Assembly (NCBI GenBank): GCA_049668345.1 | Contig: JBATJF010000172.1 | Span: 1-32,221, forward strand | Reading direction: 5' to 3' | Length of the DNA: 32,221 nt | DNA from: Gammaproteobacteria bacterium | GTDB taxonomy: Bacteria; Pseudomonadota; Gammaproteobacteria; UBA9214 | Shown: one piece after another, positions 4,877-28,706 of the stretch | Layout of the letters: each line of letters begins with the position of its first letter | How positions within the stretch are numbered: position 1 is the stretch's first letter | Position numbers and translations under genes: made by a program | The notes under the pieces: model-generated | Seen by the model: the letters and a program-made list of their open reading frames with translations, nothing else | The model's database searches: none | What the model was told of the DNA's origin: nothing

Positions 4877-5797
4877 TCAGCCGCCGGGTGCCGGTTGAGC
4901 CGCCGTTGTATCGGATTCCGGCAGGCGTTCCATGTCCACCGACACCCGTGGCCGGTGTCCCGGGTCGCCGCCGAACAATACGCCCTTGAGTGGCGTGACA
5001 TCGGCATAGTCCCGTCCCCAGGCCGTGGTGATGTGCTGGTCCAGCGGCACCCGGTTGTTGGTGGGGTCGAAGTCATGCCAGCCGACATCGGGCAGGTATA
5101 CCGAGAACCAGGCATGCGATTCGTCGGCCCCGCGCTGCTTGGCCTGGCCCGGTGGCGGCACGGTTTCCAGGTAGCCGCTCACATAGCGCGCCGCCAGCCC
5201 GAGACTGCGCAGGCAGGCGATCGCCAGGTGGGCAAAGTCCTGGCATACACCCCGCCGACTGGAGAGGACCTCGGTCAGGGGGGTGGAGACGGTGGAAAAT
5301 CCCGGGTCGTAGGTGAACTCGTGGTGGACGCGTGCCATCAGGTCGCGCACGGACTCCAGTAACGGCCGGCCGGGCGGGAACGACGGCGCCGCGTAACCGG
5401 CCAGTTCCTGACCGGTAGGTACCAGCGATGAATCGAGCACGAACTGACGGTTCTCGCGTGACGTGTCCGTGGCGGGTTCTGCCAGGCGCCTGCGCGCCTC
5501 GTCCCAGGGGATGTCAGCTTCCAGTACCAGCTGGCCGGTCCCGGGATTCAGCACGATTTCGCTGGTGGCGGTGACCGTGAGGGTCTGGTGCGGTTGCTGG
5601 ATGGAAAAATAGCTGACATGGTTGCCGAAGTAATCCGCGTGTTCCGCAAGATCCATCGGCAGCGGGTCGATCTGCAGGCGATGTCCCAGGCACTGCTGGG
5701 TGGCAAGGTTGCGCGGCCGCAGGTGGGCCAGGTTGTGGCACAGGCTGACGGTTATCCCGTAACGGTACTCTGTCTTGTGCACGACACGGTATTTCAT
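4877..5797 (-). CDS. Transglutaminase-like cysteine peptidase family protein (Bact_transglu_N + transglutaminase core)
   Basis: N-terminal MKYRVVHKTEYRY signature. The Cys-His-Asp core is intact (RGVCQDFAHL...ARYVSGY; SHAWFSVY; DFDPTN). The start overlaps the upstream stop by 4 nt (ATGA). Confidence 0.85.
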   Translation of the reverse strand: MKYRVVHKTEYRYGITVSLCHNLAHLRPRNLATQQCLGHRLQIDPLPMDLAEHADYFGNHVSYFSIQQPHQTLTVTATSEIVLNPGTGQLVLEADIPWDEARRRLAEPATDTSRENRQFVLDSSLVPTGQELAGYAAPSFPPGRPLLESVRDLMARVHHEFTYDPGFSTVSTPLTEVLSSRRGVCQDFAHLAIACLRSLGLAARYVSGYLETVPPPGQAKQRGADESHAWFSVYLPDVGWHDFDPTNNRVPLDQHITTAWGRDYADVTPLKGVLFGGDPGHRPRVSVDMERLPESDTTAAQPAPGG

Positions 5798-8355
5798 GAC
5801 TGTTCGGATTCTTCGTCGACCAGCTGGTAGGGCCGCTCGGCATGGGTGAAATAGGTTGCCGTGAGGGCATTGGAGGTTTCACCCAGGCGCTGGCCGAGCC
5901 CGGCGAGCAGGTTTTCGAGTCGCGGCCTGATACCGCCGTCCGCCTGCGCCAGTTCCTCTGCATTCGCCAGCTCGAGCTGGGTGGTGGCCTCGAGCACGAG
6001 CCGCATTTCCTGCTTGTAGGGACGCCGGTCCTGTCCCGGCAAGACGGCAAGATGCTGCCGCGCCGCGTTCAGCTGGTAGACGAGGGAGCGGCTGTTGCTT
6101 TCATCCAGCAGCAGCAGGTCCAGCGTGGCTTCCAGCTGCGGCCGGTTGCGGAAACGGCGTCGATAGAGGGAGAAGCTCTCGGTAACGGCCAGCACCGACT
6201 CCAGCAACAGGACCTCGATTTCCGGCGCCACGCGGCTGGTCAGCACGGCGCGCAGCAATGCGATCAGCAGCAGGGCGCGCTCGATGCGTCTGCCCAGGTT
6301 GAAGAAGTGCCAGCCCAGGTCACGGCTCATGCTTTCGCTGGCGGCGCCGGCGATGGCCATCAGCGCGGTGATGATGCGGTCCTGCGTGTCCTGCAGAAAC
6401 TGCAGATCGGTATGACCGCCTTGCGCCAGGCCGTCCAGCTCGTCACCGATGTCATTGAATACCCGCCGCGCGTCGCTGCTCACCAGGTTGCGTACGGCGT
6501 AGGCCGCGTTGAGGCAGTCCGACAGGTTGGCGGCCAGGGTTCCGGTGCGCCGCCGGTTGCAGATCAGGTCGACAAGCTCCGCCTGCGGCTCGGCCAGGCG
6601 CTGCTCGGCGCCGACCCCCGTGAAGCCGGGGTAGGTCATGCTCATGTGGGTCAGCCCCCGCAGCAGCATGGTCAGGGTCGTCTGGTAGACCGGGTCCGCC
6701 AGCTGCAGGGTTTCGTTGCGGCGTGTGTGGATGTTGCGGATCAGCCGGATCATGTCCTCGGCACGCTCGGCGTAGCGGGCCAGCCAGAACAGGTTTTCGG
6801 CGGCCAGCCCGGGCAGGGTCTCCTGCGATTGCGGGAAGACGCCCTTGCCCTGGGGCAGCAGCGTCACGATCTGCTCGGGTTCCGAGGCCAGCACCCAGGT
6901 GTCCTTGCTGACGGCGCCGGCCTGGTTGGACACTAACCGGCTGTCCGGTGTCTCGCCGACGCGGGTCAGTCCGCCCGGCATGACCGTGAAGCTGTCCTGG
7001 CCGGCGGCGAGGAAGGTGCGCAGCACGCTATGGCGCGGTTCCAGCCGGCCCGCATTCAGCGTCGGCGCCGAAGACGGTATCAGTCGTTCCTGACCGATGT
7101 ACTGGTGGGGCCGCGCCTTGATGCGCTCGCGCCATTCTGCCAGTCCTGTTGCATCGAGCTGGTCGCCGAACACCGGCCTGCCGCCCCGCTTGACCGGTCG
7201 CAGTACCAGGGTGGCGAGGTTGGCCAGTACGTAGTCACGTTCCCGTGGCTGTCCGCACCACCAGGTGGCGACCGAGGGCAGCCGCAGTTCCTGTCCCAGC
7301 AAATGCCTCGCCAGCCGGGGCAGGAAGGCCATCAGGCCGGGACTCTCCAGAATGCCCGCGCCGATGGTATTGGCGATGGCAACCCGTCCGCGACGCATCA
7401 CTTCCACCAGTCCGGGGACACCGAGCAGGGAGTCGGGGCGCAGTTCCAGCGGGTCACAGTAATGATCGTCGACGCGCCTGAGGATGACATCCACCGGGGC
7501 CAGCCCGCTGACGGACTTGAGCCAGACGCGACCATCGCGCACGGTCAGGTTGGCGCCCTCGATCAGGGTGTAATCGAGGTAGTTGGCAAGGTACAGGTGT
7601 TCGAAATAGGTCTCGTTGTGCGGCCCGGGGGTCATGATCACCACCCGCGGGTCCTCGCGCGCCTTTTCCGGCGCCAGGTTTGCCAGCGACTCGCGCAGGC
7701 GGCGGAAGAAGGGGGCCAGCCGGTGCGGGTGGGAATCGCGGAACAGGCTGGGTATCAGGCGCGACATGACGGTGCGGTTTTCCAGCGCATAGCCCATGCC
7801 CGAGGGGGCCTGGGTGCGGTCCTTGAGGATGCGGAACCGGCCATCATTGCCACGCACCAGGTCCGCGGCAAACAGGCTCAGTCCCGGTGGCCGGGCGGGC
7901 GGGGCGACCACGCAGGAACGCTGGAACCCGGGATCGCCGTACACCAGGTCCGGCGGGATCAGGCCCTTCCTGATCAGGCTGCAGGGACCGTAGAGATCCT
8001 GCAGGATCAGGTTGAGCAGTTCCGCCCGCTGCATCAGCCCGGACTCGATGCCGGCCCATTCGCTGCTGCTGATCAGCAGCGGCACCGGGTCGAGCTGCCA
8101 GGCCCGGTTGTGGCCGTCCTGCGCGCCGTAGACGTTGTAGGTGGCGCCGTCGCTGCGCAGCATGCGGACCGTGTCGCGCTGCCGCTGAGCGAGCACCTCG
8201 GGACCCATGGCATCCAGCGCGCTGATCAGGTACTGCCAGTGTTTGCGCACCGTGCCGTCTCCGGTGCACATCTCGTCGTAGCCTGACGGCGGCCGCGCGT
8301 AGGCCGGACAGGCTGCGCTGCGGTCGGGGGTGTCCATGGTTGGCGTGTCAGTCAC
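5794..8355 (-). CDS. Fused circularly permuted type-2 ATP-grasp (ex-DUF404/DUF407) + alpha-E (ex-DUF403) protein
   Basis: The N-terminal half parallels the 486-aa ATP-grasp at 13213..14673: VDVILRRVDDHYCDPLELRPDSLLGVPGL vs [29 protein letters not shown], and ETYFEHLYLANYL vs SAYFEHSYLAQQM. The C-terminal half carries the alpha-E signature (AAENLFWLARYAERAED vs VAEHIYWMSRYIERAEN). The start is GTG 8355 (8-nt overlap with the upstream gene) or ATG 8337. Confidence 0.85.
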   Translation of the reverse strand: MTDTPTMDTPDRSAACPAYARPPSGYDEMCTGDGTVRKHWQYLISALDAMGPEVLAQRQRDTVRMLRSDGATYNVYGAQDGHNRAWQLDPVPLLISSSEWAGIESGLMQRAELLNLILQDLYGPCSLIRKGLIPPDLVYGDPGFQRSCVVAPPARPPGLSLFAADLVRGNDGRFRILKDRTQAPSGMGYALENRTVMSRLIPSLFRDSHPHRLAPFFRRLRESLANLAPEKAREDPRVVIMTPGPHNETYFEHLYLANYLDYTLIEGANLTVRDGRVWLKSVSGLAPVDVILRRVDDHYCDPLELRPDSLLGVPGLVEVMRRGRVAIANTIGAGILESPGLMAFLPRLARHLLGQELRLPSVATWWCGQPRERDYVLANLATLVLRPVKRGGRPVFGDQLDATGLAEWRERIKARPHQYIGQERLIPSSAPTLNAGRLEPRHSVLRTFLAAGQDSFTVMPGGLTRVGETPDSRLVSNQAGAVSKDTWVLASEPEQIVTLLPQGKGVFPQSQETLPGLAAENLFWLARYAERAEDMIRLIRNIHTRRNETLQLADPVYQTTLTMLLRGLTHMSMTYPGFTGVGAEQRLAEPQAELVDLICNRRRTGTLAANLSDCLNAAYAVRNLVSSDARRVFNDIGDELDGLAQGGHTDLQFLQDTQDRIITALMAIAGAASESMSRDLGWHFFNLGRRIERALLLIALLRAVLTSRVAPEIEVLLLESVLAVTESFSLYRRRFRNRPQLEATLDLLLLDESNSRSLVYQLNAARQHLAVLPGQDRRPYKQEMRLVLEATTQLELANAEELAQADGGIRPRLENLLAGLGQRLGETSNALTATYFTHAERPYQLVDEESEQS

Positions 8356-11300
8356 ATCTGCCGCTGTGTCTCAGGTCCAGGGTGTAAGGATACTCCGGAT
8401 TGATCTCCTCCACAGGGGGTGCCATGGGTCCAGGGACATGGCCTTCGGGGAAAAACTTCGTCAGGGGTGCAAGCTCCGGCGGCGGGCGCAGCGGGCCCGT
8501 GCTGTGGCCATGGCCCCAGAAGCGGCTGATACGGCGCGATTCGGCCTCGTAGGCATTGACCGGGAACACGTCATAGTGGCGTCCACCGGGATGTGCCACG
8601 TGGTAGGTGCAGCCACCGATGGAACGGCCGTTCCAGGTATCGATGATATCGAAGACCAGCGGTGAATGAACGCCGATGGTGGGGTGCAGCGCCGAGGGTG
8701 GCTGCCAGGCGCGGAAGCGCACCCCTGCCACGTACTCGCCGTGGGTGCCGGTGCTTCGCAGCGGGACCCGGCGGCCGTTGCAGGCAACCACGTAGCGGCT
8801 TTCCGTCAGCCCGCTGACCTTGACCTGCAGCCGCTCCACCGAGGAGTCGACGAAGCGTGCCGTGCCCAGGTTGCTCATTTCCTCGCCCAGCACGTGCCAG
8901 GGCTCGAGCGCGGCATGCAGGTCGAGGCGGATGTCCTGCACGCTGACCGATCCGCAATGCGGGAAACGGAATTCCAGGAACGGCGCCAGCCATTCCAGCT
9001 GGAACGGGTAACCGGCGCGCTGCAGCTCGCACGCCACGTCTTTCATGTCGGCCCATACGTAGTGGGGCAGCATGAAGCGGTCATGCAGCGCGGTGCCCCA
9101 GCGCACCAGCCGGTGCCGGTAGGGCCGGTCCCAGAAGCGTGCAACCAGCGTGCGCAGCAGCAACATCTGCACCAGGCTCATCTGCGAATGCGGCGGCATT
9201 TCGAAGGCACGGAACTCCACCAGCCCCAGGCGTCCGGTCGACGAATTGGGCGAGTACAGCTTGTCGATACAGAACTCGGCGCGATGGGTGTTGCCGGTGA
9301 TATCCACCAGCAGGTTGCGCAGCAGCCGGTCCACCAGCCAGGGTTCGGCCACTTCACCGTCGGGCATTTGCTGGAAGGCGATTTCCAGCTCGTACAGGTT
9401 CTCGTCCCTGGCCTCGTCCACCCGCGGTGCCTGGCTGGTCGGGCCGATGAACATGCCGGAGAACAGCGTGGACAGGCCGGGGTGATGCTGCCAGTAGGTC
9501 AGCAGGCTGCGCAGCAGGTCGGGACGCCGCAGGAACGGACTGTCGGCCGGGGTGGCGCCGCCGAGGGTGACATGGTTGCCGCCGCCGGTGCCGGTATGGC
9601 GGCCGTCCAGCATGAACTTCTCCGTTCCCAGCCGGGACAGGCGCGCCTCGGCGTAGAGGATCTCGGTATTCTCCACCAGTTCCTGCCAGTCGTGTGCCGG
9701 GTGGATGTTGACCTCGATCACGCCCGGATCGGGGGTCACGGCCAGCTTGCGCATACGCCAGTCCCGCGGGGGTTCGTAGCCTTCGATGCGTACCGGCATC
9801 TGCAGCTCGGCCGCCGTCAGTTCCACCGCGGCGAGCAGGTCCAGGTAATGCTCCAGGTGGGTAAGCGGCGGCAGGAACAGGCGCAGCATGCCATCGCGGG
9901 CCTCGACACACAGGGCGGTATGAATCACCTCGATTCGCCGCCGCGCCTGCACGCCGTTGTCCGCCGGTTCCTGCTGCATGATTTCCGGGTGGGATTCCGG
10001 CGCCGCCTCGATGCGGCTGAAGCGGCGGGTCACCTCGCCGTAGTAGTCACCCAGCGCCGGGCGCGGTTCGAACAGGTCGCGTTCCGGTTCGATGTCGCGT
10101 TCCTCCTCGGCTATCCAGGGCAGGGCGTCGAGTGGCAGGCGCAGTCCCATGGGGGAATCGCCGGGCGCGAGGCACATATGCCCGCGGCGAAAGTGCCAGC
10201 TGCAGCTTTGCCAGCCGCTGCGGGAATCATCCCAGCGCAGCGGCAGGGCGAAGCCGGCGGGTTTGCCGAGGTCGCCGGCGAGCAGTTCCACCAGCCGGCG
10301 CCGTTCGTCCGGCTTCTTCAGGTCGGTGCCGAGCAGGTCCACGTTGGCCGGCTGGTCGCCTTCCTTCCACAGGTAGTAAAGGGTGTCTTCGTAGGCGGGG
10401 AGCAGGTAATGCCCGGGTACGCCGAGCCTGCGGGTCAGTGCTGCAGCGAACTGCTCCGCCTCGTCCGGTCCGCAGCCGTAGTCGACGCCGTCCCGGGCCA
10501 GCAGTTTGGGGTCGCGCCACACCGGGTTGCCGTCGACTCGCCAGAAGCAGTTCAGTGACCAGCGCGGCACGGGTTCGCCCGGGTACCACTTGCCCTGGCC
10601 GTAGTGCAGCAGGCCGCCGGGTGCGAAGCGCCCTTGCAGTCGCTGCAGCAGATCGCCGGCCAGCTCGCGCTTGTGTTTCCCGAGCGCGGCGTCATTCCAC
10701 TGCGCCGATTCCATGTCATCGATGGAAACGAACGTCGGTTCGCCGCCGAGCGTGAGCCGCACGTCACCGGCCGCCAGGTCGGCATCCACCTTGCGTCCCA
10801 GGGCCTGGATGGTCTCCCACTGTGACGCGGTGTACGGCTTGGTGACCCGCGGGTCCTCGTGGATGCGCTGCACCTCGTTATGGAAGCGGAATTCCACCTT
10901 GCATTTGCCGGTCGTGCCGGTAATCGGCGCGGCGCTGACGGGGTGGGGCGTGCAGGCGAGCGGGATATGGCCCTCGCCCGCGAACAGGCCCGAGGTCGGA
11001 TCGAGTCCCAGCCAGCCGGCGCCCGGTATAAACACCTCGGCCCAGGCATGCAGGTCGGTGAAGTCATGGTCGGTGCCGGCGGGACCCTCCAGCGGTTTTT
11101 CATCCGGTGTCAGCTGCAGCAGGTAGCCGGAAACAAAGCGCGCCGCCAGGCCGAGATGGCGCAGGATCTGCACCATCAACCAGGCGCTGTCGCGACAGGA
11201 ACCCAGTGCCTTGTCGAGGGTTGTCTCGCAGCTCTGGATGCCCGGTTCCATGCGGATGGTGTAGTCGATGTCACGCTGCAACCGCTGGTTGATAGCCACC

Positions 11301-11734
11301 AGGAAATTATTGATCTCCTGCTTCGAACGATCGACACCGGACAGCCACTTCAGCAACCGCGGGCCGTCCTCGGTGATCTCCAGATAAGGCGCCAGTTCCT
11401 TGCGCAAACCGGGCGTGTATTCGAAGGGGTAGTGCTCCGCATATTTTTCGACGAAAAAATCGAACGGGTTGATGACCACGATATCGGCCACCAGGTCCAC
11501 CTCGAAGGACAAGGTCCGCACCGGCTCCGGGAACACCAGGCGGGCGAGGTAGTTGCCGAAGGGATCCTGCTGCCAGTTGATGAAATGTTTCTCGGGCAGC
11601 ACCTTGAGCGAATAGGACTCGATCGGGCTGCGGGTATGCGGGGCCGGGCGCAGCCGGACGATATGCGGGGAGACCTCGACCGGCCGGTCAAAGCGGTACT
11701 CCGTCAAGTGATTGATAGCAACTCGGATAGCCAT
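8348..11734 (-). CDS. Large transglutaminase-like protein (Bact_transglu_N + transglutaminase core + DUF2126)
   Basis: N-terminal MAIRVAINHLTEYRF. Cys-His-Asp core is intact (LGSCRDSAWL...ARFVSGY; LHAWAEVF; GLDPTSG). A long C-terminal DUF2126 region contains GTGGGNHVTLGG. 1128 aa. Confidence 0.85.
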   Translation of the reverse strand: MAIRVAINHLTEYRFDRPVEVSPHIVRLRPAPHTRSPIESYSLKVLPEKHFINWQQDPFGNYLARLVFPEPVRTLSFEVDLVADIVVINPFDFFVEKYAEHYPFEYTPGLRKELAPYLEITEDGPRLLKWLSGVDRSKQEINNFLVAINQRLQRDIDYTIRMEPGIQSCETTLDKALGSCRDSAWLMVQILRHLGLAARFVSGYLLQLTPDEKPLEGPAGTDHDFTDLHAWAEVFIPGAGWLGLDPTSGLFAGEGHIPLACTPHPVSAAPITGTTGKCKVEFRFHNEVQRIHEDPRVTKPYTASQWETIQALGRKVDADLAAGDVRLTLGGEPTFVSIDDMESAQWNDAALGKHKRELAGDLLQRLQGRFAPGGLLHYGQGKWYPGEPVPRWSLNCFWRVDGNPVWRDPKLLARDGVDYGCGPDEAEQFAAALTRRLGVPGHYLLPAYEDTLYYLWKEGDQPANVDLLGTDLKKPDERRRLVELLAGDLGKPAGFALPLRWDDSRSGWQSCSWHFRRGHMCLAPGDSPMGLRLPLDALPWIAEEERDIEPERDLFEPRPALGDYYGEVTRRFSRIEAAPESHPEIMQQEPADNGVQARRRIEVIHTALCVEARDGMLRLFLPPLTHLEHYLDLLAAVELTAAELQMPVRIEGYEPPRDWRMRKLAVTPDPGVIEVNIHPAHDWQELVENTEILYAEARLSRLGTEKFMLDGRHTGTGGGNHVTLGGATPADSPFLRRPDLLRSLLTYWQHHPGLSTLFSGMFIGPTSQAPRVDEARDENLYELEIAFQQMPDGEVAEPWLVDRLLRNLLVDITGNTHRAEFCIDKLYSPNSSTGRLGLVEFRAFEMPPHSQMSLVQMLLLRTLVARFWDRPYRHRLVRWGTALHDRFMLPHYVWADMKDVACELQRAGYPFQLEWLAPFLEFRFPHCGSVSVQDIRLDLHAALEPWHVLGEEMSNLGTARFVDSSVERLQVKVSGLTESRYVVACNGRRVPLRSTGTHGEYVAGVRFRAWQPPSALHPTIGVHSPLVFDIIDTWNGRSIGGCTYHVAHPGGRHYDVFPVNAYEAESRRISRFWGHGHSTGPLRPPPELAPLTKFFPEGHVPGPMAPPVEEINPEYPYTLDLRHSGRCD

Positions 11735-11798: not shown

Positions 11799-12647
11799 TC
11801 AGCTGTCCGTCCGGATGCTGAGATCAAAGTGCATTTCGGAATTCCCGGCAGCGCCGTAACAGGACCCCTCTATCGGCAGGGTCCAGGCCGGACTGCAGGC
11901 CGCGGTCAGCGCCACGTGCGCATCCGCCACGGCGGTACCGTGGCCGGGGTCGTAGCCGCGCCAGCCGCCGCCGGGGAGGTAGACCTCCGGCCAGGCGTGC
12001 AGGTAACGGCGTTTCCCGCGCGTTTCCGGACGGGCCTGGTAGCCGCTGACGAAACGCGCCGCGAGGCCCTGCTCCCGGCAGACTGCGATAAACAGCAGCG
12101 TCAGGTCGCGGCATGCACCCCGGCGCTGCGCCAGGGTAAGTTCGGGGCTTTGCGGTGCACCCTGGTCCCGAATCGACTTTTCGCATGTGGTGTGCAGGAA
12201 GCGGCTCAGGGTGTCGAGAAAAGCCAGCGTGTTGTTGCCCGCCTGTCTGGCCAGATCGGCGGCCAGCTCGATGACCGCGGGTGCGGCTGTGCCGCAGGCA
12301 CGACAGGCTGTCAGCGCCGGGACCTCGTGCTGGCTGTAGCAAACGGGCAGAGCGGTTGCCGGGGTGTCCACGATGTAGTCGAAGGGATTGTCCCGCAGCG
12401 TGACGACGCGGGCGGTGCTGTCGATACGCAGTTCGACCGTCGTGCCGGTAAACCACAGGCGTCTGACCAGGTTGCCTTCGGCATCGAGGACGTTCGATTG
12501 CAGCACAGGTTCCGGGGTGATTGTGCAGTCATAGTCGAGCACCTGCTGGCTGCCGTCGGTACGCGGCAGCAGGCGCACGATATGCGGACCGAGCCGGACC
12601 GGACTCTGGTAACGGTAAGTGGTGATATGCCGGATTTCAAATTGCAC
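11799..12647 (-). CDS. Transglutaminase-like cysteine peptidase family protein; first gene of the minus-strand operon
   Basis: GTG start; (M)QFEIRHITTYRY N-terminus. Triad is intact (RGACRDLTLL...ARFVSGY; LHAWPEVY; GYDPGHG). There are 64 nt to the next gene. Confidence 0.8.
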   Translation of the reverse strand: MQFEIRHITTYRYQSPVRLGPHIVRLLPRTDGSQQVLDYDCTITPEPVLQSNVLDAEGNLVRRLWFTGTTVELRIDSTARVVTLRDNPFDYIVDTPATALPVCYSQHEVPALTACRACGTAAPAVIELAADLARQAGNNTLAFLDTLSRFLHTTCEKSIRDQGAPQSPELTLAQRRGACRDLTLLFIAVCREQGLAARFVSGYQARPETRGKRRYLHAWPEVYLPGGGWRGYDPGHGTAVADAHVALTAACSPAWTLPIEGSCYGAAGNSEMHFDLSIRTDS

Positions 12648-12685
12648 AAGCGAAGGTCTTCATCTGCAGTCCCTGGTATCGGTGA

Positions 12686-12701
12686 AGCAAGAAGTACGCC
12701 A
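12686..12701 (-). promoter_or_regulatory. Possible sigma-54 (-24/-12) promoter for the minus-strand operon (partial match)
   Basis: The minus strand reads TGGCGTACTTCTTGCT. GG and GC are at the canonical spacing and TTGCT is intact, with two mismatches in the -24 box (GT for AC). It lies ~40 nt upstream of GTG 12647. Confidence 0.3.
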
Positions 12702-13083
12702 TTTCTGCCGTTCCTGTCCTTCCCGTGCCGCCGGACGGGATATCAGGAGATTGCGCGCCGGCTGTGGCGGTGTTTCATGCCCTGCACCCTGTTGCCGCGG
12801 CTGACCGGGAACCTGCCGGGCGGGTTCAGGTGCAAGTCTGGTGCGGAAACGGGGATTTTTCATGATCCGTGCGTCATGCTGGTGCATGTCAGGCGCTGCT
12901 GGCATCCCTGCTGCAGGCGGCGGCCACAGTACGCGGCTTGATCCGTGGCCAGTGCCGGCAGCGGTGCGCGTCCGCCAAGGTGCTGTATTTCAATGATGGC
13001 TGCTTCCGCCTGGCATGATTTCGTGCGCCATGGCGAAAAGAATGACGCAACAGCGGCTGCACCGGCCGGCTGGCTCGCCCGGG

Positions 13084-13099
13084 TGGCACGTTGTTTGCT
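13084..13099 (+). promoter_or_regulatory. Sigma-54 (RpoN) -24/-12 promoter
   Basis: TGGCACGTTGTTTGCT is a full match to TGGCACG-N4-TTGCW. The -12 GC sits 115 nt upstream of ATG 13213 of the ATP-grasp gene. Confidence 0.6.
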
Positions 13100-13212
13100 G
13101 TGATGTGAGATATACGGTGGCAGCGATACCGACGACTTGCATCATCCGGTAGCCGTGACCAGCGGTTCGCTATACACCTTTCCCTGACACGGCAGGCACG
13201 ATCCGGCGGGAC

Positions 13213-14673
13213 ATGAGTGATATGACAATTCGGTGGCAAGACTATTCAAGCGGCGACTCCTACGACGAATTGATTACGCCGGCCGGGCATGCGCGCAAGG
13301 CAGCCCGGCAAGCGATACGGTATATCAGTTCGCTGAGCGATGCGGAATGGACCGAGCGCCGGGATGCCGCGGAACTGGCCATGCGCGTCATGGGTATTAC
13401 CTTCACCGTCTATACCAACGAAAGCGGCATCGACCGGGTCTGGCCGTTCGATATCATTCCACGCATCATTCCCGCCCGCGAGTGGCGCACCACCGAGGCC
13501 GGCCTGATCCAGCGTGCGACCGCACTGAACAAATTCATAGCCGATATCTACGGCGAACAGCGCATCATCAGGGACAAGGTCTTTCCGGGTGAGCTGCTGG
13601 CGGAGTCGGTCAATTTCCGCAAGCAGTGCGTCGGCATCAGGCCGCCTCTCGATGTCTGGGCACATATCTGCGGCAGTGACCTGGTACGCGACAGCGACGG
13701 GAAATTCTACGTCCTGGAAGACAACCTGCGTGTCCCGTCGGGCGTCTCCTATATGCTGGAGAACCGCCTGGTCATGAAACGTGTCTTTCCCGAATTGTTC
13801 GAGGAAGTCAGCATCCTGCCGGTAGACGGCTATCCTGCCCGCCTGTTCGATACCCTGGCCTCGCTGTCGCCGCGCCCGGCCGACTACCCGACGGTCGTTG
13901 TCCTGTCACCGGGCATCTATAACTCCGCCTATTTCGAGCATTCCTACCTGGCACAGCAAATGGGTGTGGAACTGGTGGTCGGCAGGGACCTGGTGGTGAT
14001 GGATGACGACTGTGTCTACCTGCGCACCGTCGGCGGGCTGGAGCGGGTCGATGTCATTTACCGCCGGGTCGACGACATGTTCCTCGATCCCGAAGTCTTC
14101 CGTCCGGACTCCATGCTCGGCGTGCCCGGCCTGATGCGGGCCTGGCGTGCGGGCAATGTGGGCATTGCCAATGCCCCCGGCGCCGGCGTTGCCGATGACA
14201 AGGTTGTCTATGCCTTTGTGCCGGACATGATCCGCTACTACCTGGACGAAGAGCCGATCCTGCCCAATGTCGAGACCTACCTGTGCATGGACGACAGGCA
14301 GCGCGACTACGTGCTCGCCAATCTCGACAAGCTGGTGGTCAAGCCCGCCAATGAATCGGGCGGCTACGGCATGCTGGTCGGACCGTTTTCCAGCAAGGCG
14401 GAGCGGCAGAAGTTTGCGGAACTGATCAAGGCGAAACCGCGTAATTACATCGCCCAGCCGACACTGGCGCTGTCGACAACACCGACGCTGTGTGACGGTC
14501 ACATCGAGTCGCGTCATATCGACCTGCGCCCGTTTATCCTGTCCGGGCAGACCAGCCATGTCACGCGCGGCGGCCTGACGCGGGTTGCGCTCAAGAAAGG
14601 CTCGCTGGTGGTGAATTCATCACAGGGTGGTGGCAGCAAGGATACCTGGGTCGTTGACATGGAGAGAACCTGA
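13213..14673 (+). CDS. Circularly permuted type-2 ATP-grasp protein (ex-DUF404/DUF407)
   Basis: Family-typical blocks: FDIIPRIIPAREW..GLIQRATALNKFIADIYG, SAYFEHSYLAQQMG, VVKPANESGGYGMLVGP. It is paralogous to the N-terminal half of the 5794..8355 product. Confidence 0.85.
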   Translation: MSDMTIRWQDYSSGDSYDELITPAGHARKAARQAIRYISSLSDAEWTERRDAAELAMRVMGITFTVYTNESGIDRVWPFDIIPRIIPAREWRTTEAGLIQRATALNKFIADIYGEQRIIRDKVFPGELLAESVNFRKQCVGIRPPLDVWAHICGSDLVRDSDGKFYVLEDNLRVPSGVSYMLENRLVMKRVFPELFEEVSILPVDGYPARLFDTLASLSPRPADYPTVVVLSPGIYNSAYFEHSYLAQQMGVELVVGRDLVVMDDDCVYLRTVGGLERVDVIYRRVDDMFLDPEVFRPDSMLGVPGLMRAWRAGNVGIANAPGAGVADDKVVYAFVPDMIRYYLDEEPILPNVETYLCMDDRQRDYVLANLDKLVVKPANESGGYGMLVGPFSSKAERQKFAELIKAKPRNYIAQPTLALSTTPTLCDGHIESRHIDLRPFILSGQTSHVTRGGLTRVALKKGSLVVNSSQGGGSKDTWVVDMERT

Positions 14674-14675
14674 TC

Positions 14676-15656
14676 ATGTTGCTTTCAAGTGTTGCCGAGC
14701 ATATCTACTGGATGTCCCGTTATATCGAACGGGCCGAGAACACCGCGCGCATCATCCTCGTGCACAACAACCTGATGCTCGATATGCCGCGCAGGATTGC
14801 CATCGGCTGGGACCCGCTGGTCTACATCATGGGCTCCATGGAACCGTTCTGTGAGCGCTACGAGGAAGCCAGTGAGCGCAACGTGGTGCGTTTCCTGGTC
14901 TCCGACAGGAACAATTCCAGCTGCATCACCTGCTCACTGGGCCAGGCGCGCGAGAACCTGCGGACCATCCGGGCCATCGTGCCGCGAGCGGCCTGGGAGA
15001 CCCTGAACGACCTGTATGAATACACCCGGGAAAATGCTGCCAGCGGCATCAGCCGCCGCGGTCGTTACGCCTACATGAAACGGGTGGTCGATTCCTGCCA
15101 GCTGCTGGCCGGGAAACTGTCCGGGACCATGAGCCATGACATGGCCTACGAGTTCCTGCGCATCGGCCGCTTCATGGAGCGTGCGGACATGACCAGTCGT
15201 GTCATCGACGTGCGCGCCACCAACCTGCTGCCGCAACAGACCGATGAACTCAAGCCCTTCGACGATATCCAGTGGAAAAGCGTGCTGGACCTGCTGATGG
15301 CCTACCAGATGTACCGGCGCCGGGTGCACGTCGGCGTGCGCGGCAGGGAGGCCCTGCGCTTCCTGCTGCAGGAGGAGGAGTTCCCGCGTTCGATACATTT
15401 CTGCCTGGCCGAGGTCGGCCACTGTCTGCGCCGTCTGCCCGGCAACGAGTCGGTGCTCCGGGTGCTCGGCCGCGCGCAGCGCATGGCGCAGGATTTCAGT
15501 GTCGGTGACAACGTCACCGCCGGTTTGAATGATTTCATCAACGAACTACAATTGGTACATACCGAGTTGCATGAACAGCTCGTCGCAAGCTATTTCGATG
15601 TGCCGCAGGAAGCCGCATCACTGCATGCGCCCACCCGTCTCGCTGCAACCGGTTAA
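14676..15656 (+). CDS. Alpha-E domain protein (ex-DUF403)
   Basis: MLLSSVAEHIYWMSRYIERAENTARI signature. It starts 2 nt after the ATP-grasp stop and is paralogous to the C-terminal half of the fused 853-aa protein. Confidence 0.85.
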   Translation: MLLSSVAEHIYWMSRYIERAENTARIILVHNNLMLDMPRRIAIGWDPLVYIMGSMEPFCERYEEASERNVVRFLVSDRNNSSCITCSLGQARENLRTIRAIVPRAAWETLNDLYEYTRENAASGISRRGRYAYMKRVVDSCQLLAGKLSGTMSHDMAYEFLRIGRFMERADMTSRVIDVRATNLLPQQTDELKPFDDIQWKSVLDLLMAYQMYRRRVHVGVRGREALRFLLQEEEFPRSIHFCLAEVGHCLRRLPGNESVLRVLGRAQRMAQDFSVGDNVTAGLNDFINELQLVHTELHEQLVASYFDVPQEAASLHAPTRLAATG

Positions 15657-15729
15657 TTGCCTCCGGATCTCTTTCAGGGCACCGGCACCGGTGACCTTGC
15701 TGCAGGGGCTGCGGTACACATGAACTGAC

Positions 15730-18700
15730 ATGGCCATGATCACGCATGACGGCAGCGGTCTGTATCAACCGGGATTCGAGCATGACGGTTGCGGCTTCGG
15801 CCTGATTGCGCAAATGGACGGCAAGCCGGGGCATGCGCTGGTGCACCGGGCGATCCGCGCGCTGTCACGCCTGACCCACCGCGGGGCGGTTGCGGCGGAT
15901 GGCAAGAGCGGTGACGGCTGCGGGCTGCTGATGAAGCTGCCGCATGATTTTCTGCATGCCGTGGCACTCGCCGACGGTATCACCCTGTCATCCCGCTATG
16001 CCGTGGGGATGCTGTTTCTCAACCGGGACCCGGAGCGTGCCGGGGCGGCGCGCTGGAGACTGGAGTTCGAACTCGAGGCGCAGGACCTCGCAGTGGCCGG
16101 CTGGCGTAGCGTGCCCGTCGAGCCGGATGCCTGCGGAGCACGGGCTCTGGAGAGCCTGCCTCTGATCGAGCAGGTGTTCGTCAATGCACCGCCCGGGCTG
16201 CCCGGGGACGAGCTGGAACGACGCCTGTACATCGCCCGGCGCCGTGCCAGGAAGGCCATCAAGGACGAGGACAGTACGTTTTACGTCGCCAGTCTCTCCA
16301 GCCAGGTGATCTGCTACAAGGGTCTGGTCATGCCGCATAACCTGCCGGTGTTCTACCCCGACCTGTGTGATGAACGCCTGGCGTCCTCGCTGTGCGTGTT
16401 TCACCAGCGGTTTTCCACCAACACCTGGCCGGAATGGCGGCTGGCACAACCGTTCCGCTATCTCGCGCATAACGGTGAAATCAATACCATCCAGGGCAAT
16501 CGCAACTGGGCCCGCGCGCGCAGCCACAAGTTCGAGTCGCCGCTGATCCCCGACATGGACGCGATTCGCCCCTGGGTGTCGATGTCGGGCTCCGATTCCT
16601 GCAGCCTGGACAACATGCTGGAGGCGCTGCTGGCCGGCGGCATGGATATCTTCCTGGCCATGCGCCTGCTGATCCCGCGCGCCTGGCAGAACATCGAGAC
16701 CATGGATCCCGACCTGCGGGCATTTTACGAATACCATTCCATGCACATGGAACCGTGGGACGGACCGGCGGGGATCGTGCTGACGGATGGCCGCTATGCC
16801 GCCTGCCTCATGGATCGCAATGGCCTGCGCCCGGCGCGCTACGTCATCACCCGTGACCGCTGTATCACCCTGGCATCGGAGATCGGGGTGACCGAACACG
16901 AACCGCAGGACGTCGTTGCCAGGGGGCGGCTGTCGCCCGGCGACATGATGGCGGTGGACACCCGGACCGGCCGCTTGCTGACGCCGGGCATGATCGAGGA
17001 TGACCTCAAAGGCCGCTGGCCCTGCCGCAAGTGGCTGCAGCAGCACGCCGTACGCCTCGAGTCACGCCGCGATGAGGAGGTGCGCTACTGCCGGCAGTCG
17101 GCGCCCGGACAACTCAGGATCCGGCAGAAGCAGTTCCAGGTGACGCTGGAGGAACTCGACCAGGTGCTGCGTGTGCTGGCCGAGGGCGGGCAGGAAGCGA
17201 TCGGCTCCATGGGAGACGATACTCCCATGCCGGTCCTGTCACGACAGGTCCGCTCGCTGTTCGACTATTTCCGTCAGCAGTTTGCACAGGTCACCAATCC
17301 GCCCATCGATCCCCTGCGCGAGCAGATCGTCATGTCACTGGAGACCTGTTTCGGTGTCGAACGCAACCTGTTTGTCGAGGACCCGCAGCATGCCGCGCGC
17401 CTGATGGTCAACAGCCCGGTCCTGTCGGGAAGCAAGTTCAACCAGCTGCTGGAACAGTCGGATCCGCGCTACCGGCATGCCCGCATCGACCTGAACTACG
17501 ACCGCACGCTGGACCTGCGCAGCGCCATCCATGCACTGGCCGAACGGGCCGTCGAACAGGTGCGAAGCGGCAAGTGCATCCTGGTCCTTTCGGACCGGGA
17601 CATCGCGCAGGACCGCCTGCCCGTGCATGCGCTGCTGGCCACCGGCGCGATACACCACCGGCTGATCGAGGCCGGACTGCGCTGCGATGCCAACCTGGTG
17701 GTCGATACCGGCACCGCGCGCAATCCGCACGAATTCGCCGTGCTGATCGGCTTCGGCGCAACGGCCATCCATCCCTGGCTGGCCTACCAGTGCATCGCCG
17801 ACCTGTTTCGCGGCGGGCAGGCGGACGCTGCCGGCGATACCGTGACCGGGGCACTCCATTCCTACCGGCGCGGTATCAACAAGGGCCTGTACAAGATCCT
17901 TTCCAAGATGGGGATCTCCACCATCACGAGCTACCGGGGCGCGCAACTCTTCGAGTCCATCGGCCTGCATCGCGATGTCGTCGATCTGTGTTTCAGCGGT
18001 ACGCCCTGCCGCCTGCAGGGCGCCGGGTTCGAGGAACTCGAGGCGGACCAGCGGCGCCTGGCGGACGCGGCCTGGGACGGACGCCGGGACATCGAGCCGG
18101 GCGGGCGGCTGAAATTCATCGCCGGCGGCGAGTTCCATGCCTTCAACCCGGATGTCGTCACGACCCTGCACCAGGCCGTGGCCAGCGGCGAGTACCGGGA
18201 CTACCGGCGCTATGCGGCGCTGATCAACCAGCGGCCGCCGCTCGTGCTGCGGGACCTGCTGGGAGTGCGTGACGATCTCGAGCCGGTGCCGATCGAGGCG
18301 GTCGAGCCGGTCGAGGAGATTGTCAGGCGTTTCGAGACCGGCGCGATGTCACTGGGCGCCCTGTCGCCGGAGGCGCACGAGACCCTGGCGATCGCCATGA
18401 ATCGACTCGGTGGCCGTTCCAACTCGGGTGAGGGTGGCGAGGACCCGCAACGCTTCGGCACCGAGCGTGTTTCCAGGATCAAGCAGGTGGCATCCGGCCG
18501 CTTCGGCGTGACGCCGCATTACCTGGTCAATGCGGACGTGCTGCAGATCAAGATCGCGCAGGGTGCCAAGCCCGGTGAAGGCGGTCAACTTGCCGGCCAG
18601 AAGGTGAACGAACTGATTGCCCGCCTGCGGCATGCCGAGGTCGGTACACCGCTGATATCCCCGCCGCCGCATCACGACATCTATTCCATCGAGGACCTGG

Positions 18701-20205
18701 CGCAGCTGATCTTCGATCTCAAGCAGGTCAACCCGGCGGCGATGGTATCCGTCAAGCTGGTCTCCGAGGCCGGCGTCGGCACCATTGCCGCGGGCGTCGC
18801 CAAGGCCTATGCGGACCAGATCACAGTCTCGGGCTACGATGGTGGTACCGGCGCCAGTCCGCTGTCGTCGGTGAAATACGCCGGCAGTCCCTGGGAGCTG
18901 GGTCTGCGCGAGACACACCAGATCCTGCGTGCCAACGACCTGCGCCAGCGTGTGCGGCTGCAGGTGGACGGCGGCATCAAGACCGGCCTCGATGTCATCA
19001 AGGCTGCGCTGCTGGGTGCGGAGAGTTTCGGCTTCGGCACGACGCCGCTGATCGTGCTGGGCTGCAAGTACCTGCGTATCTGCCACCTGAACAATTGTGC
19101 GACCGGCGTGGCGACCCAGGACCCCGTGTTGCGCAGTCAGCACTACCGCGGCGAGGCGGAGAAGGTGATGACCTTTTTCCGCTGGGTGGCGCAGGAGGTG
19201 CGTGAATGGATGGCACGTCTTGGCGTGCGCCGTTTCGATGAACTCATCGGCCGCACGGACCTGCTGCGCCTGCTGCCCGGGGCAACCGGCAAGCAGCGCC
19301 GGCTCGACCTGCAGCCGCTGCTGTATGACGCCGACGTCGCCGCGGACAAGCCGCGCTATTGCCTGCAGGCGCGCAACGATTCATTCGACAAGGGGGCGAT
19401 GGCCGAACAGATGCTCAGCGACATGCTGCCGCTGATCGAAGCGGGTGAGGGCGGTGAATTCAGTTACCGTATTCGCAACGACAACCGCTCCATCGGTGCG
19501 CGCGTGTCCGGTGAAATCGCGCGTCGCCATGGCAATAACGGCCTCGAGCATCATCCACTGGTGGTGCGCCTGCAGGGGACCGCCGGCCAGAGCCTCGGGG
19601 TGTGGAATGCCGGCGGTCTGCACCTGTACCTGGAAGGGGATGCCAACGATTATGTCGGCAAGGGCATGGCCGGCGGCAAGATCGTCGTCTATCCAGCGTA
19701 CGCCAGCGATTATCCAAGCCAGGAGCATGTCATCCTGGGGAATACCTGCCTGTACGGCGCCACCGGCGGGCGCCTGTATGCAGCGGGCCAGGCGGGAGAG
19801 CGTTTCGCCGTGCGCAATTCAGGAGCGGTTGCCGTGGTCGAGGGTGCCGGCGATCACTGCTGCGAATACATGACCGGCGGAATCGTTGCGGTGCTTGGTG
19901 ATACCGGTTTCAACTTCGGCGCGGGGATGACTGGCGGCTTCGCGTTCGTGTACGATCGCAACAATGGATTCGTCGATCACTATAACCATGAACTGGTGGA
20001 CATCCACCACATCGACACCGAGCAGACCGAGAACCACCGTAACCTGCTGTACCGGATGCTCGGCGATTATGTTGCGGATACCGGCAGCCGATGGGGGCAG
20101 ACCTTGCTGGACGAGTTCCCGGAGCATGCCAGGCATTTCTGGCTGGTGAAGCCAAGGACCGCGAAAATGGATGCCCTGGCGGATGCCATGGTGCAGGTGG
20201 CCTAG
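15730..20205 (+). CDS. gltB: Glutamate synthase (GOGAT) large subunit
   Basis: 1491 aa. Ntn-amidotransferase catalytic Cys after a short propeptide (FEHDGCGFGLIAQMDG). Colinear with GltB through the central, FMN and C-terminal beta-helix domains. It starts 73 nt after the alpha-E stop on the same strand. Confidence 0.95.
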   Translation: MAMITHDGSGLYQPGFEHDGCGFGLIAQMDGKPGHALVHRAIRALSRLTHRGAVAADGKSGDGCGLLMKLPHDFLHAVALADGITLSSRYAVGMLFLNRDPERAGAARWRLEFELEAQDLAVAGWRSVPVEPDACGARALESLPLIEQVFVNAPPGLPGDELERRLYIARRRARKAIKDEDSTFYVASLSSQVICYKGLVMPHNLPVFYPDLCDERLASSLCVFHQRFSTNTWPEWRLAQPFRYLAHNGEINTIQGNRNWARARSHKFESPLIPDMDAIRPWVSMSGSDSCSLDNMLEALLAGGMDIFLAMRLLIPRAWQNIETMDPDLRAFYEYHSMHMEPWDGPAGIVLTDGRYAACLMDRNGLRPARYVITRDRCITLASEIGVTEHEPQDVVARGRLSPGDMMAVDTRTGRLLTPGMIEDDLKGRWPCRKWLQQHAVRLESRRDEEVRYCRQSAPGQLRIRQKQFQVTLEELDQVLRVLAEGGQEAIGSMGDDTPMPVLSRQVRSLFDYFRQQFAQVTNPPIDPLREQIVMSLETCFGVERNLFVEDPQHAARLMVNSPVLSGSKFNQLLEQSDPRYRHARIDLNYDRTLDLRSAIHALAERAVEQVRSGKCILVLSDRDIAQDRLPVHALLATGAIHHRLIEAGLRCDANLVVDTGTARNPHEFAVLIGFGATAIHPWLAYQCIADLFRGGQADAAGDTVTGALHSYRRGINKGLYKILSKMGISTITSYRGAQLFESIGLHRDVVDLCFSGTPCRLQGAGFEELEADQRRLADAAWDGRRDIEPGGRLKFIAGGEFHAFNPDVVTTLHQAVASGEYRDYRRYAALINQRPPLVLRDLLGVRDDLEPVPIEAVEPVEEIVRRFETGAMSLGALSPEAHETLAIAMNRLGGRSNSGEGGEDPQRFGTERVSRIKQVASGRFGVTPHYLVNADVLQIKIAQGAKPGEGGQLAGQKVNELIARLRHAEVGTPLISPPPHHDIYSIEDLAQLIFDLKQVNPAAMVSVKLVSEAGVGTIAAGVAKAYADQITVSGYDGGTGASPLSSVKYAGSPWELGLRETHQILRANDLRQRVRLQVDGGIKTGLDVIKAALLGAESFGFGTTPLIVLGCKYLRICHLNNCATGVATQDPVLRSQHYRGEAEKVMTFFRWVAQEVREWMARLGVRRFDELIGRTDLLRLLPGATGKQRRLDLQPLLYDADVAADKPRYCLQARNDSFDKGAMAEQMLSDMLPLIEAGEGGEFSYRIRNDNRSIGARVSGEIARRHGNNGLEHHPLVVRLQGTAGQSLGVWNAGGLHLYLEGDANDYVGKGMAGGKIVVYPAYASDYPSQEHVILGNTCLYGATGGRLYAAGQAGERFAVRNSGAVAVVEGAGDHCCEYMTGGIVAVLGDTGFNFGAGMTGGFAFVYDRNNGFVDHYNHELVDIHHIDTEQTENHRNLLYRMLGDYVADTGSRWGQTLLDEFPEHARHFWLVKPRTAKMDALADAMVQVA

Positions 20206-20247: not shown

Positions 20248-20483
20248 GGCCACGGAATCCACGGAATCCACGGAAGAACACGGATATAAATGCAGTTGCA
20301 GGGTGCGTTTTACACACCGCGAACGGTGCACGAAGTGCACCCTACGAAAAAGAGTGGCCACGGAATCCACGGAAGAACACGGAAATATAAATGCAGTTGC
20401 AGGGTGCGTTTTACGCACCGTGAACGGTGCACGAAGTGCACCCTACGAAAAAGAACGGCCACGGAATCCACGGAAGAACACGG
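20248..20483. repeat. Tandem repeat array, 2.3 copies of a 101-108 bp unit with twin hairpins
   Basis: Copy 1 is 20248-20355, copy 2 is 20356-20456, and a partial copy 3 is 20457-20483. The unit starts with 9-bp sub-repeats CCACGGAA(T/G), x3 in copy 1 and x2 in copy 2. It contains hairpins GGTGCG-TTTTA-CGCACC and GGTGCAC-GAA-GTGCACC (20325-20341 and 20426-20442). The array lies between the convergent gltB and lipoprotein genes. Confidence 0.9.
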
Positions 20484-20514: not shown

Positions 20515-20937
20515 TCAGTTTTCAACGGCACCATTATCGATCCAGACCCGGATGGTCTCGATCTCTTCGGCACTGAGGGGTGCCTTGCCATGCGGCATGG
20601 AGATTGTCAGGTTGTCTTTGGAGGAAATCAGGTTATACAGCGAACTGGTCATGGCCGAACCCGGATGGATGACCGGTCCGAACCGGGTGTCTTTCATCAG
20701 CGATGCGTAGGAGTCCACCTGAAGGCCGGTTGTTTCGGCAGCCGGCTTTCCGGCTGCATGACATTCAGCACAATGCTTTTGCAGGATGGGGGCCACATCA
20801 TCCGCATAGCTCACCGGCTGTGACTGCGACGGCTCTGCCTTTTGTAACTGCAGCTGCCCTGCCTTGTCGTCATCGCAGGCCGCCAGGCTCGCGGCGATTG
20901 CCAGTAACGCGGCGAGCGGCATGGCTCGATTGTTCAT
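20515..20937 (-). CDS. c-type cytochrome domain lipoprotein (PSCyt1-like, single CxxCH)
   Basis: Signal peptide plus lipobox (MNNRAMPLAALLAIAASLAAC) and heme motif CAECH. Domain-like pattern VAPILQKHCAECH...MPHGKAPLSAEEIETIRVWIDNGA. GGAGGGG lies 7 nt upstream of ATG 20937; the ORF track starts 12 codons earlier. Confidence 0.65.
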   Translation of the reverse strand: MNNRAMPLAALLAIAASLAACDDDKAGQLQLQKAEPSQSQPVSYADDVAPILQKHCAECHAAGKPAAETTGLQVDSYASLMKDTRFGPVIHPGSAMTSSLYNLISSKDNLTISMPHGKAPLSAEEIETIRVWIDNGAVEN

Positions 20938-20987
20938 TGGGCTACCCCTCCGGGACTGTTGGCCAGCCGGCATCTTAGCATTCTTCA

Positions 20988-22869: not shown

Positions 22870-24402
<1,533 letters not shown>

Positions 24403-26156: not shown

Positions 26157-26700
26157 ACACTCCGGTTTATTGACGCATGCCTTGGTGCCGTGCCACACCC
26201 GCCCGCTGCGTGGAAAACCGCCGCCTGCAGCATGGTTTACCCGGGTTATGCCGGGCAGTGGCCAGCTTGCATACGCCATCAGGCACTGGACCATCGTGCG
26301 TTTTGCGGCAGGTATCCCTCCCGGGCAGGCGTGGGCTTCCGGGACCTGCCCTGTTCTCAGCAACATCTGTGCCATGTGCTGCCGTTGAAAAAAGGTATTC
26401 AAAACAGTGACTTGTCTGGCATCGGTCAGGAGCTGCTGCACCAGAATCCGCTGCATTGCCGTGCGTACGCCTCGTTATAGTGCAGAAACCGGGCTATCCG
26501 TCTGCACCCTGCCCGCACGGTCCGAGGGTCCGGCAGGGCATGAAGTGCAGTACATCAGGGGTGGTCCGTCCCTCGGCTGGAGCCGGCCGGGACAATGGCG
26601 TGCGGATCATGTGTCCGGAATGGAGATGGCGGGCGCGCCGGATACCGGCGTCTGATGCGGGAGAAGGTGTGGCGGGGTGGCAGGGCGGCTTGCCTGCGCG

Positions 26701-28685: not shown

Positions 28686-28706
28686 TGGGCAGGACTCCGT
28701 GTGTAC

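Follow-up and report, generated by a model that had tools for sequence, protein, structure and literature searches.

Genes for circularly permuted ATP-grasp (cpATP-grasp), Alpha-E, transglutaminase and Anbu proteins are widespread and are among the most strongly nitrogen-starvation-induced genes in Pseudomonas, and their chemistry has been a puzzle since 2008-2009. In a 32,221-nt stretch of gammaproteobacterial DNA (assembly GCA_049668345.1, contig JBATJF010000172.1; hereafter the window), a split cpATP-grasp/Alpha-E gene pair is followed directly by gltB, the gene for the large subunit of glutamate synthase (GOGAT). Does this linkage reflect shared regulation, a shared substrate or an accident of rearrangement? 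Comparison of the locus with its relatives makes the first answer reasonably probable: the split pair would be under sigma-54 control driven by nitrogen limitation, and transcription would read through into a captured gltB. Three features are new, namely a predicted promoter architecture of the sigma-54/NtrC type that is conserved across Gammaproteobacteria, a putative divergent control region around which the two halves of a supercluster are arranged in one clade, and the clade-restricted capture of gltB and gltD inside an Anbu-type system.

Predicted sigma-54 promoters and NtrC-like sites of the putative divergent control region

The pair lies on the plus strand, where the open reading frame (ORF) list and Pfam agree with the first-pass annotation, which had been made from the letters alone, on a 486-aa and a 326-aa protein encoded 2 nt apart (ATP-grasp stop TGA 14671-14673, alpha-E ATG 14676). 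With so short a gap, alpha-E is probably translationally coupled to the ATP-grasp gene. An ortholog scan with the split ATP-grasp protein, in which one genome was taken per species, gave 80 loci, with orthologues at 64-99% identity in as many genomes; alpha-E was in view in 78 of them. Sigma-54 sites were sought upstream on the coding strand, with GG at -24, GC at -12 and the spacing TGGCAC-N5-TTGCW.

Across Gammaproteobacteria, the predicted sigma-54 promoter is conserved with the split pair. The window carries an exact consensus site, TGGCACGTTGTTTGCT, upstream of the ATP-grasp gene. Exact matches are expected by chance 0.05 times per window, and nine were found in 2.84 Mb of related loci, seven of them at the orthologous position. 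Within 220 nt upstream on the coding strand, a site was present in 7/78 loci as an exact match, in 25/78 with up to one mismatch and in 39/78 with up to two, against backgrounds per 200 nt of 0.0006, 0.005 and 0.033 respectively. The opposite strand of the same upstream stretch had no sigma-54 site in the 78 loci. The site was also found in 13 of 14 loci added from the window's own clade (described below); the fourteenth, L082, begins inside the ATP-grasp gene and offers no upstream sequence.

A sigma-54-like site of the other orientation, TGGCGTACTTCTTGCT, precedes the small transglutaminase gene that diverges from the pair. This minus-strand site is the most conserved block in the upstream alignment A1 of six genomes, and equivalent sites are present in L084, L168, L171 and L172. 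The conserved plus- and minus-strand sites together mark the 565-bp intergenic region as a putative divergent sigma-54/sigma-54 control region. Between the two sites sits an NtrC-like palindrome, TGCGTCATGCTGGTGCA, which is a candidate enhancer and is conserved in L002. When 23 loci (20 of the clade and 3 from outside it) were scored, NtrC-like sites with up to three mismatches were seen in 14 against about 1 expected, and with up to two mismatches in 6 against 0.17 expected; L081 and L172 have tandem sites 41 nt apart. Over all 77 loci the enrichment was weaker. No Rfam family was found in the window at gathering score, nor in 12600-15800 at E values up to 1, and thus the window has no known riboswitch or leader.

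Nitrogen control of the family is already known for homologues. In P. putida, PP_2685-2688 (Anbu, transglutaminase, Alpha-E and ATP-grasp) are raised 4- to 37-fold under nitrogen limitation (PMC8050072 Table 2, PMC7801951), an induction attributed to NtrB/NtrC (PMC8050072, PMC7801951), and they are cited in PMC3235984 and PMC5666114 as the most upregulated genes of the Hervas 2008 array study. In Bradyrhizobium, an RpoN site has been predicted before a CP_ATPgrasp gene (PMC13207237). Here the support is at the level of sequence. Given the divergent sigma-54 sites and the NtrC-like site, the whole cluster is probably switched on by nitrogen limitation, like its P. putida homologues. The nitrogen-status control that the first-pass annotation had put forward as speculation thus gains support from the exact and conserved sigma-54 site, from the enriched NtrC-like sites and from the induction of PP_2685-2688 under nitrogen limitation (PMC8050072, PMC7801951, PMC3235984).

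The alpha-E-gltB junction and its distribution

As first annotated, gltB is the next gene on the plus strand, 73 nt beyond alpha-E (stop TAA 15654-15656, gltB ATG 15730) and with no terminator between them; the start conserved in relatives is ATG 15736 (MITHDG), with which the gap becomes 79 nt. The gap contains no terminator-like site, its folding is no better than that of shuffled sequences (z = -0.05), and no sigma-54 site was found in it. In L084, too, no intrinsic terminator is present between alpha-E and gltB. Since no terminator intervenes, transcription from the sigma-54 promoter would most likely read into gltB.

The gap had been described as free of hairpins. This holds for terminators; the gap does, however, have a 14-nt inverted repeat and another small hairpin, both kept in five to six relatives whose flanking sequence diverges, and neither with a U-tract behind it. 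A block of about 45 nt just before gltB is better conserved than the tail of alpha-E. Within it, the symmetry of the 14-nt repeat is maintained through two-sided changes in L161 (ACCGC..GCGGT) and L172 (CACCCG..CGGGTG); 94% of cells are paired and two pairs are changed on both sides, a result that 17 of 500 shuffles also reach. Covariation in these five informative sequences is no more than suggestive and would fit an RNA hairpin as well as an operator for a dimeric protein. Further upstream, a sigma-70-like sequence, TTGAAT-16-TACAAT (15525-15552), recurs in six relatives.

In the window, gltD is detached from gltB: it is not directly downstream on the same strand and is convergent with gltB. 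The same convergent placement downstream of gltB was seen in every linked locus with room for it (window, L161, L168 and L172). At ordinary loci gltD directly follows gltB in 45/51 cases, and a sigma-54 site with up to one mismatch lies upstream of gltB in 0/75. As none of these 75 loci has such a site, placing gltB behind a sigma-54-driven pair would be a real regulatory change compared with ordinary gltBD operons.

The alpha-E-gltB adjacency was found on 10 contigs (window, L001, L002, L081, L082, L161/L162, L172, L084 and L168), always in the same orientation and with a gap of 73-125 nt. These contigs belong to one Thiohalobacterales-like clade and come from at least three of its sub-lineages; named homologues of alpha-E came from Thiohalobacterales and Thiogranum. 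In the ATP-grasp-side scan, gltB followed alpha-E only in L001 (99% identical, probably the same species as the window) and L002 (95%). A reciprocal scan, in which the first 400 GltB residues were compared with metagenome contigs, gave 80 loci, of which 3 have the pair directly upstream: L081 and L082, with ATP-grasp proteins 93-97% identical to that of the window, and L084, with identities of 77% for ATP-grasp, 57% for alpha-E and 69% for gltB. The remaining 77 have no pair directly upstream. Context look-ups of alpha-E homologues at graded identity added L161/L162 (86%), L172 (83%) and L168, a member of the L084 lineage. The adjacency was not found in L171 (81%), L163/L164 (79%), L165 (68%), L173 (62%), L167 (58%), L169 and L170, nor in L005 and L006, which makes nine distinct sister arrangements within the clade without it. 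It is also absent from the rest of the loci surveyed (71 pair-centred with alpha-E in view and 77 gltB-centred), and no locus outside the clade has it. The adjacency is thus not peculiar to one genome, being shared by nine other contigs including one lineage with an alpha-E of 57% identity.

In the ATP-grasp tree, L084 is sister to the group made of the window clade and L003-L006, and its gltB is sister to the window-clade gltB genes in 100/100 neighbour-joining bootstraps. From these two trees, the ATP-grasp-alphaE-gltB block seems either to have been inherited, with repeated losses, or to have moved in one piece. The order in L172 is ATP-grasp - alphaE - gltB, then convergent gltD - Anbu - hemerythrin (L172 13566-16689, minus strand), and L163 (8494-10085, minus strand) has the same layout minus gltB and gltD. 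The GOGAT genes therefore sit between the ligase and the peptidase halves of the Anbu system, and the comparison of L172 with L163 suggests that the two were inserted or deleted as one convergent unit.

Several observations concern the surroundings of gltB and gltD. In L002, a metagenome-assembled genome related at 95%, gltB (12522-16990) is interrupted along the whole gene and falls into at least four frames, either by assembly error (long-read) or as a pseudogene. Immediately after the gltB stop the window has a 101-nt tandem repeat (20259-20483; 2.2 copies, 95% match), each copy of which has a perfect GGTGCAC-GAA-GTGCACC hairpin with a 9-nt CCACGGAAT repeat before it. The tandem repeat could be an extragenic element of the repetitive kind or the scar of a rearrangement. 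Between gltB and an aldolase gene lies the gene for a small c-type cytochrome that looks like a lipoprotein (20515-20973, minus strand; CAECH motif, PSCyt1 E 8e-7). A second exact sigma-54 consensus of the window, TGGCACAGATGTTGCT (26359-26374, minus strand), falls inside the annotated 5' end of the PEPCK ORF (24537-26456, minus strand). Since the Pfam domain of this ORF begins at residue 131 and a GGAG-preceded ATG is found near 26155, the site probably serves as a promoter, with the true pckA start some 205 nt downstream. The gltD gene and a class I aldolase gene follow pckA on the same strand, and gltD could also be sigma-54-controlled. Beyond these genes lies a cluster for a HoxFUYH-type NAD-linked [NiFe] hydrogenase (27204-31788, minus strand), made up of a Complex1_51K/2Fe-2S subunit, a Fer2_4 subunit, a 208-aa ORF without Pfam match and an NiFeSe large subunit.

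The split and fused modules and their supercluster

ATP-grasp enzymes form an acyl-phosphate and then ligate the carboxylate to an amine. The 486-aa protein matches CP_ATPgrasp_2 over the full profile (E 6e-168) and CP_ATPgrasp_1 (E 1.6e-141), and its residues 35-481 match PDB 3N6X at E 6.5e-158. Alignments with its homologues, which are called at 483 aa, start at residue 4, so that ATG 13222 is probably the start. Alpha-E, for which 4462 homologues were found, is the constant, obligatory partner of the ATP-grasp amidoligase. Its AlphaFold2 model is all-helical (predicted local distance difference test score 81, predicted template-modelling (TM) score 0.83). Neither a sequence search of PDB nor a Foldseek comparison of the model with PDB found a match (best Foldseek E 0.5, TM 0.28); the top Foldseek hit, NasR, was not significant and was not used as a fold relative. 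No NCBIfam model names the ATP-grasp, alpha-E, transglutaminase or DUF2126 proteins of the window, and the term 'DUF2126' was not found in the searchable literature. The pair consists of ordinary members of a widespread, functionally unsolved system.

On the minus strand, the 853-aa fused form of the module stands inside a larger operon, and Pfam agrees with the first-pass annotation both on this and on the small transglutaminase that leads the operon. The order of transcription is small transglutaminase, transglutaminase-DUF2126, fused ATP-grasp+Alpha-E, transglutaminase and Peptidase_Mx. The split pair had been called a second copy of the fused module, and a recent, redundant duplication would account for the same domain content of two modules less than 5 kb apart. 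The split ATP-grasp shares 40% identity with the N-terminal half of the fused protein, and Alpha-E shares 23% with its C-terminal half; both forms are full-length Pfam matches. Among 120 sequences, 81 split and 39 fused, pairwise identities are at least 59% between split proteins, at least 46% between fused proteins and at most 40% between the two kinds. The two groups separate completely, and each window protein has high identity to its own orthologues in the nearest genomes (86-99% for the split and 73-98% for the fused form). Because of this complete separation, recent duplication was rejected, and we give it practically no weight. Comparison of the two paralogues, on which the first-pass annotation had left ancient and recent origin side by side, comes down on ancient paralogy. 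Its statement that the window holds both architectures of the same system is right as to paralogous modules and understates the relation, for these ancient paralogues normally belong to one co-directional supercluster (31+5 of 78 loci).

Downstream of alpha-E on the same strand, 31/78 loci have the transglutaminase-DUF2126 gene with the fused gene behind it; in 5/78 the fused gene comes directly after alpha-E, and in 9/78 Peptidase_Mx does. The big operon lies divergently upstream of the pair, as in the window, in 9/78 loci and co-directionally upstream in 3/78. The pair is linked to the DUF2126/fused operon in 48/78 related loci, usually directly upstream of it. By gene order, the pair usually opens one supercluster shared with this operon, and the head-to-head arrangement in the window represents an inverted variant of it. 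Since the split pair forms the first two genes of the cluster in most gammaproteobacterial relatives, the presence of split and fused forms in one genome is the norm.

In 33/80 loci the pair has a gene for an Anbu (proteasome-like) peptidase within 10 kb, and on this ground it is identified, at the level of sequence, as the Anbu-type module described in PMC3235984, PMC5666114 and PMC6376114. No Anbu gene was found in the 32-kb window by tblastn with the Anbu proteins of L163, L172 and L173. The earlier statement that alpha-E is followed in the window by gltB and by no transglutaminase or Anbu gene is accurate. The transglutaminase is absent from the downstream side but is not missing: the 282-aa protein encoded 565 nt upstream on the opposite strand is probably the transglutaminase partner of the split pair, and a small transglutaminase is likewise divergent in Nitrosomonas loci, with Anbu adjoining in L014, L016, L019 and L029.

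Other genes accompany the pair or its paralogues. Three Nitrosomonas loci carry a glutaminase gene, directly after alpha-E in L022 (2587-3519, plus strand) and about 5 kb upstream in L014 (4042-4971, minus strand) and L016 (4213-5142, minus strand); this is a second, independent link of the pair to a glutamine-using enzyme. The window also encodes another amidoligase paralogue (1400-3619, plus strand), a DUF2126-only protein of 739 aa that shares about 33% identity with the 1128-aa protein and has no transglutaminase domain at its N-terminus; its gene and the end of the big operon converge. L006 (8102-9355, minus strand) encodes a protein of roughly 415 aa without Pfam match, which is present also in L003-L005, L033, L084, L165, L167, L168 and L172. 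Its gene is divergent to the ATP-grasp gene and has the minus-strand sigma-54-like site in front of it; the protein is conserved at 77-93% identity across lineages, above alpha-E, and by eye its C-terminus resembles VOC/HPPD. The window lacks this protein and has the 282-aa transglutaminase instead. In L006, the 1155-aa ORF that comes after alpha-E is without Pfam match and may be spurious.

Table 1. Coordinates of genes and control elements in the window.
Feature	Position	Strand	Remarks
Split circularly permuted ATP-grasp amidoligase, COG2308 type (PF04174, PF14403)	13213-14673	+	486 aa, Pfam
Alpha-E partner protein, COG2307 type	14676-15656	+	326 aa, Pfam Alpha-E (PF04168) E 7e-80, full profile
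Predicted sigma-54 (-24/-12) promoter TGGCACGTTGTTTGCT	13084-13099	+	exact consensus, 113 nt before ATG
Divergent sigma-54-like site TGGCGTACTTCTTGCT	12686-12701	-	2 mismatches, 39 nt upstream of small transglutaminase gene
NtrC-like palindrome TGCGTCATGCTGGTGCA, candidate enhancer	12870-12886	.	2 mismatches to TGCACCA-N3-TGGTGCA
Inverted repeat CACCGG-CA-CCGGTG, 14 nt	15680-15693	+	conserved in relatives
Small hairpin CTGCAG-GGG-CTGCGG	15700-15714	+	gap sequence
gltB, glutamate synthase large subunit	15730-20205	+	four GOGAT domains, NCBIfam equivalog NF008730 2478 bits
gltD, glutamate synthase small subunit	22870-24309	-	TIGR01318 715 bits
Small transglutaminase-fold protein	11799-12647	-	282 aa, Pfam Bact_transglu_N + Transglut_core
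Transglutaminase-DUF2126	8348-11734	-	1128 aa, Pfam
Fused ATP-grasp + Alpha-E paralogue	5794-8355	-	853 aa, Pfam CP_ATPgrasp + Alpha-E
Second transglutaminase	4877-5797	-	Pfam
Peptidase_Mx	3662-4846	-	Pfam

Interpretation of the gltB linkage and comparison with known systems

In the reading we favour, an NtrC-type activator would bind between the divergent promoters under nitrogen limitation, and sigma-54 transcription would proceed rightwards from 13084-13099 through ATP-grasp-alphaE and leftwards through the small transglutaminase/DUF2126/fused operon. In the Thiohalobacterales-like clade the rightward transcript would continue into gltB, and the GOGAT large subunit would gain a nitrogen-limitation input that is lacking in the ordinary gltBD operons of relatives. 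The linkage would then most likely mean co-regulation in the nitrogen-stress response and would not be evidence on the ligase substrate. If read-through is true, the locus offers a clear case from nature in which capture by an operon has altered how a core enzyme of nitrogen assimilation is regulated, and it would narrow the search for the ligase substrate. Several points weigh against this reading. The sole argument for read-through is the absence of a terminator, and with gltD on the other strand read-through would raise one GOGAT subunit only. The adjacency is patchy within the clade, missing from the nine sister arrangements, and selection for it is therefore not strong. The NtrC-like site of the window is not significant by itself (6 matches in the window against 2.4 expected), and the activator of sigma-54 may be one other than NtrC. 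A conserved inverted repeat lies 40-55 nt before gltB, and the sigma-70-like sequence at 15525-15552 could be an independent gltB promoter or operator; it stays only a candidate because it falls within codons of a conserved peptide, GLNDFINxLQLV, and three linked loci (L161, L168 and L084) lack it.

These last points lead to the possibility that the adjacency is incidental, a rearrangement having split gltB from gltD and put it by alpha-E, where it keeps its own promoter or operator and is expressed independently. The region is indeed prone to rearrangement: gltD is inverted, as is the big operon when compared with the co-directional layout common elsewhere, the divergent neighbour varies among sister lineages (282-aa transglutaminase or 415-aa protein), and the 101-nt tandem repeat follows gltB. 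The conserved block with its inverted repeat, a possible operator, and the patchy distribution would also fit. This account is rather unlikely, as 10 contigs of at least three sub-lineages retain the orientation and a short gap of 73-125 nt, the gltB phylogeny matches that of ATP-grasp, no terminator separates alpha-E from gltB, and the sigma-70-like site, which L161, L168 and L084 lack, falls in codons of a conserved peptide. A biochemical coupling, which we also place among the less probable accounts, would make the linkage a shared pathway: the ligase would use the glutamate or glutamine handled by GOGAT, e.g. for a gamma-glutamyl peptide, polymer or tag, or, in a variant included in the same estimate, the transglutaminase/Anbu side would free amide nitrogen that GS-GOGAT re-assimilates. 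It is consistent with the survival of the adjacency through deep divergence (alpha-E 57% and gltB 69% between the window and L084/L168), with the position of gltB and gltD in L172 exactly between ATP-grasp/alpha-E and Anbu/hemerythrin, with glutaminase near the pair in three Nitrosomonas loci, with the correlation of the domains' abundances with those of urea-metabolism domains in marine metagenomes (PMC3597751) and with the nitrogen-salvage role proposed for the Anbu operon (PMC6376114). However, the adjacency is missing in the nine sister arrangements and in all 71 other pair-centred loci with alpha-E in view, the pair is upstream in just 3/80 gltB-centred loci, and a shared nitrogen regulon accounts for the same neighbours without a shared substrate. 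The Yersinia ATP-grasp homologue hydrolyses ATP in vitro without stimulation by glutamate or glutamine (PMC6376114). With that result and a clade-restricted adjacency, the glutamate- or glutamine-derived substrate proposed in the first-pass annotation found no direct support. A bolder proposal, to which we attach a still lower probability, is that GOGAT is a working component of the Anbu-type system in this clade. ATP-grasp/alpha-E-gltB and the convergent gltD(-Anbu-hemerythrin) arm would then form a nitrogen-starvation module, in which glutamine and glutamate would take up amide nitrogen that the ligase, the transglutaminase and the peptidase release or transfer; if true, this would be a pointer to the substrate class of cpATP-grasp/Alpha-E enzymes.

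Among known systems, the nearest to the split pair is the Anbu operon (COG2308 ATP-grasp, COG2307 Alpha-E, COG1305 transglutaminase and Anbu) of P. putida PP_2688-PP_2685, the P. aeruginosa PA1733 operon and Y. bercovieri. The leading two genes, their order and their tight coupling are the same, a small Bact_transglu_N/Transglut_core protein is encoded near the window pair, and the predicted sigma-54 promoter of the window fits the known induction by nitrogen limitation (PMC8050072, PMC7801951). The window differs in that the transglutaminase is divergent and not downstream, no Anbu gene lies within it and gltB occupies the downstream position. PDB 3N6X (Mfla_0391) is a clear homologue of the 486-aa protein; its deposited name, 'putative glutathionylspermidine synthase', is putative only, and the PDB search attached no function to it.

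The minus strand of the window carries the transglutaminase-DUF2126/fused cpATP-grasp-Alpha-E/transglutaminase cluster. We take M. tuberculosis Rv2566-Rv2567-Rv2569c to be of this cluster type and Rv2411c to be of the split form. When Rv2411c and Rv2567 were expressed, no gamma-aminobutyric acid (GABA)-trehalose was made (bioRxiv 10.64898/2026.04.15.718621). In the window clade the cluster has the opposite orientation to the split pair, and an extra small transglutaminase stands at its head. Compared with the canonical gammaproteobacterial gltBD, gltB and gltD of the window are full-length equivalog or subfamily matches; the difference lies in their arrangement, with gltB following a ligase pair driven by a predicted sigma-54 promoter and gltD convergent with it.

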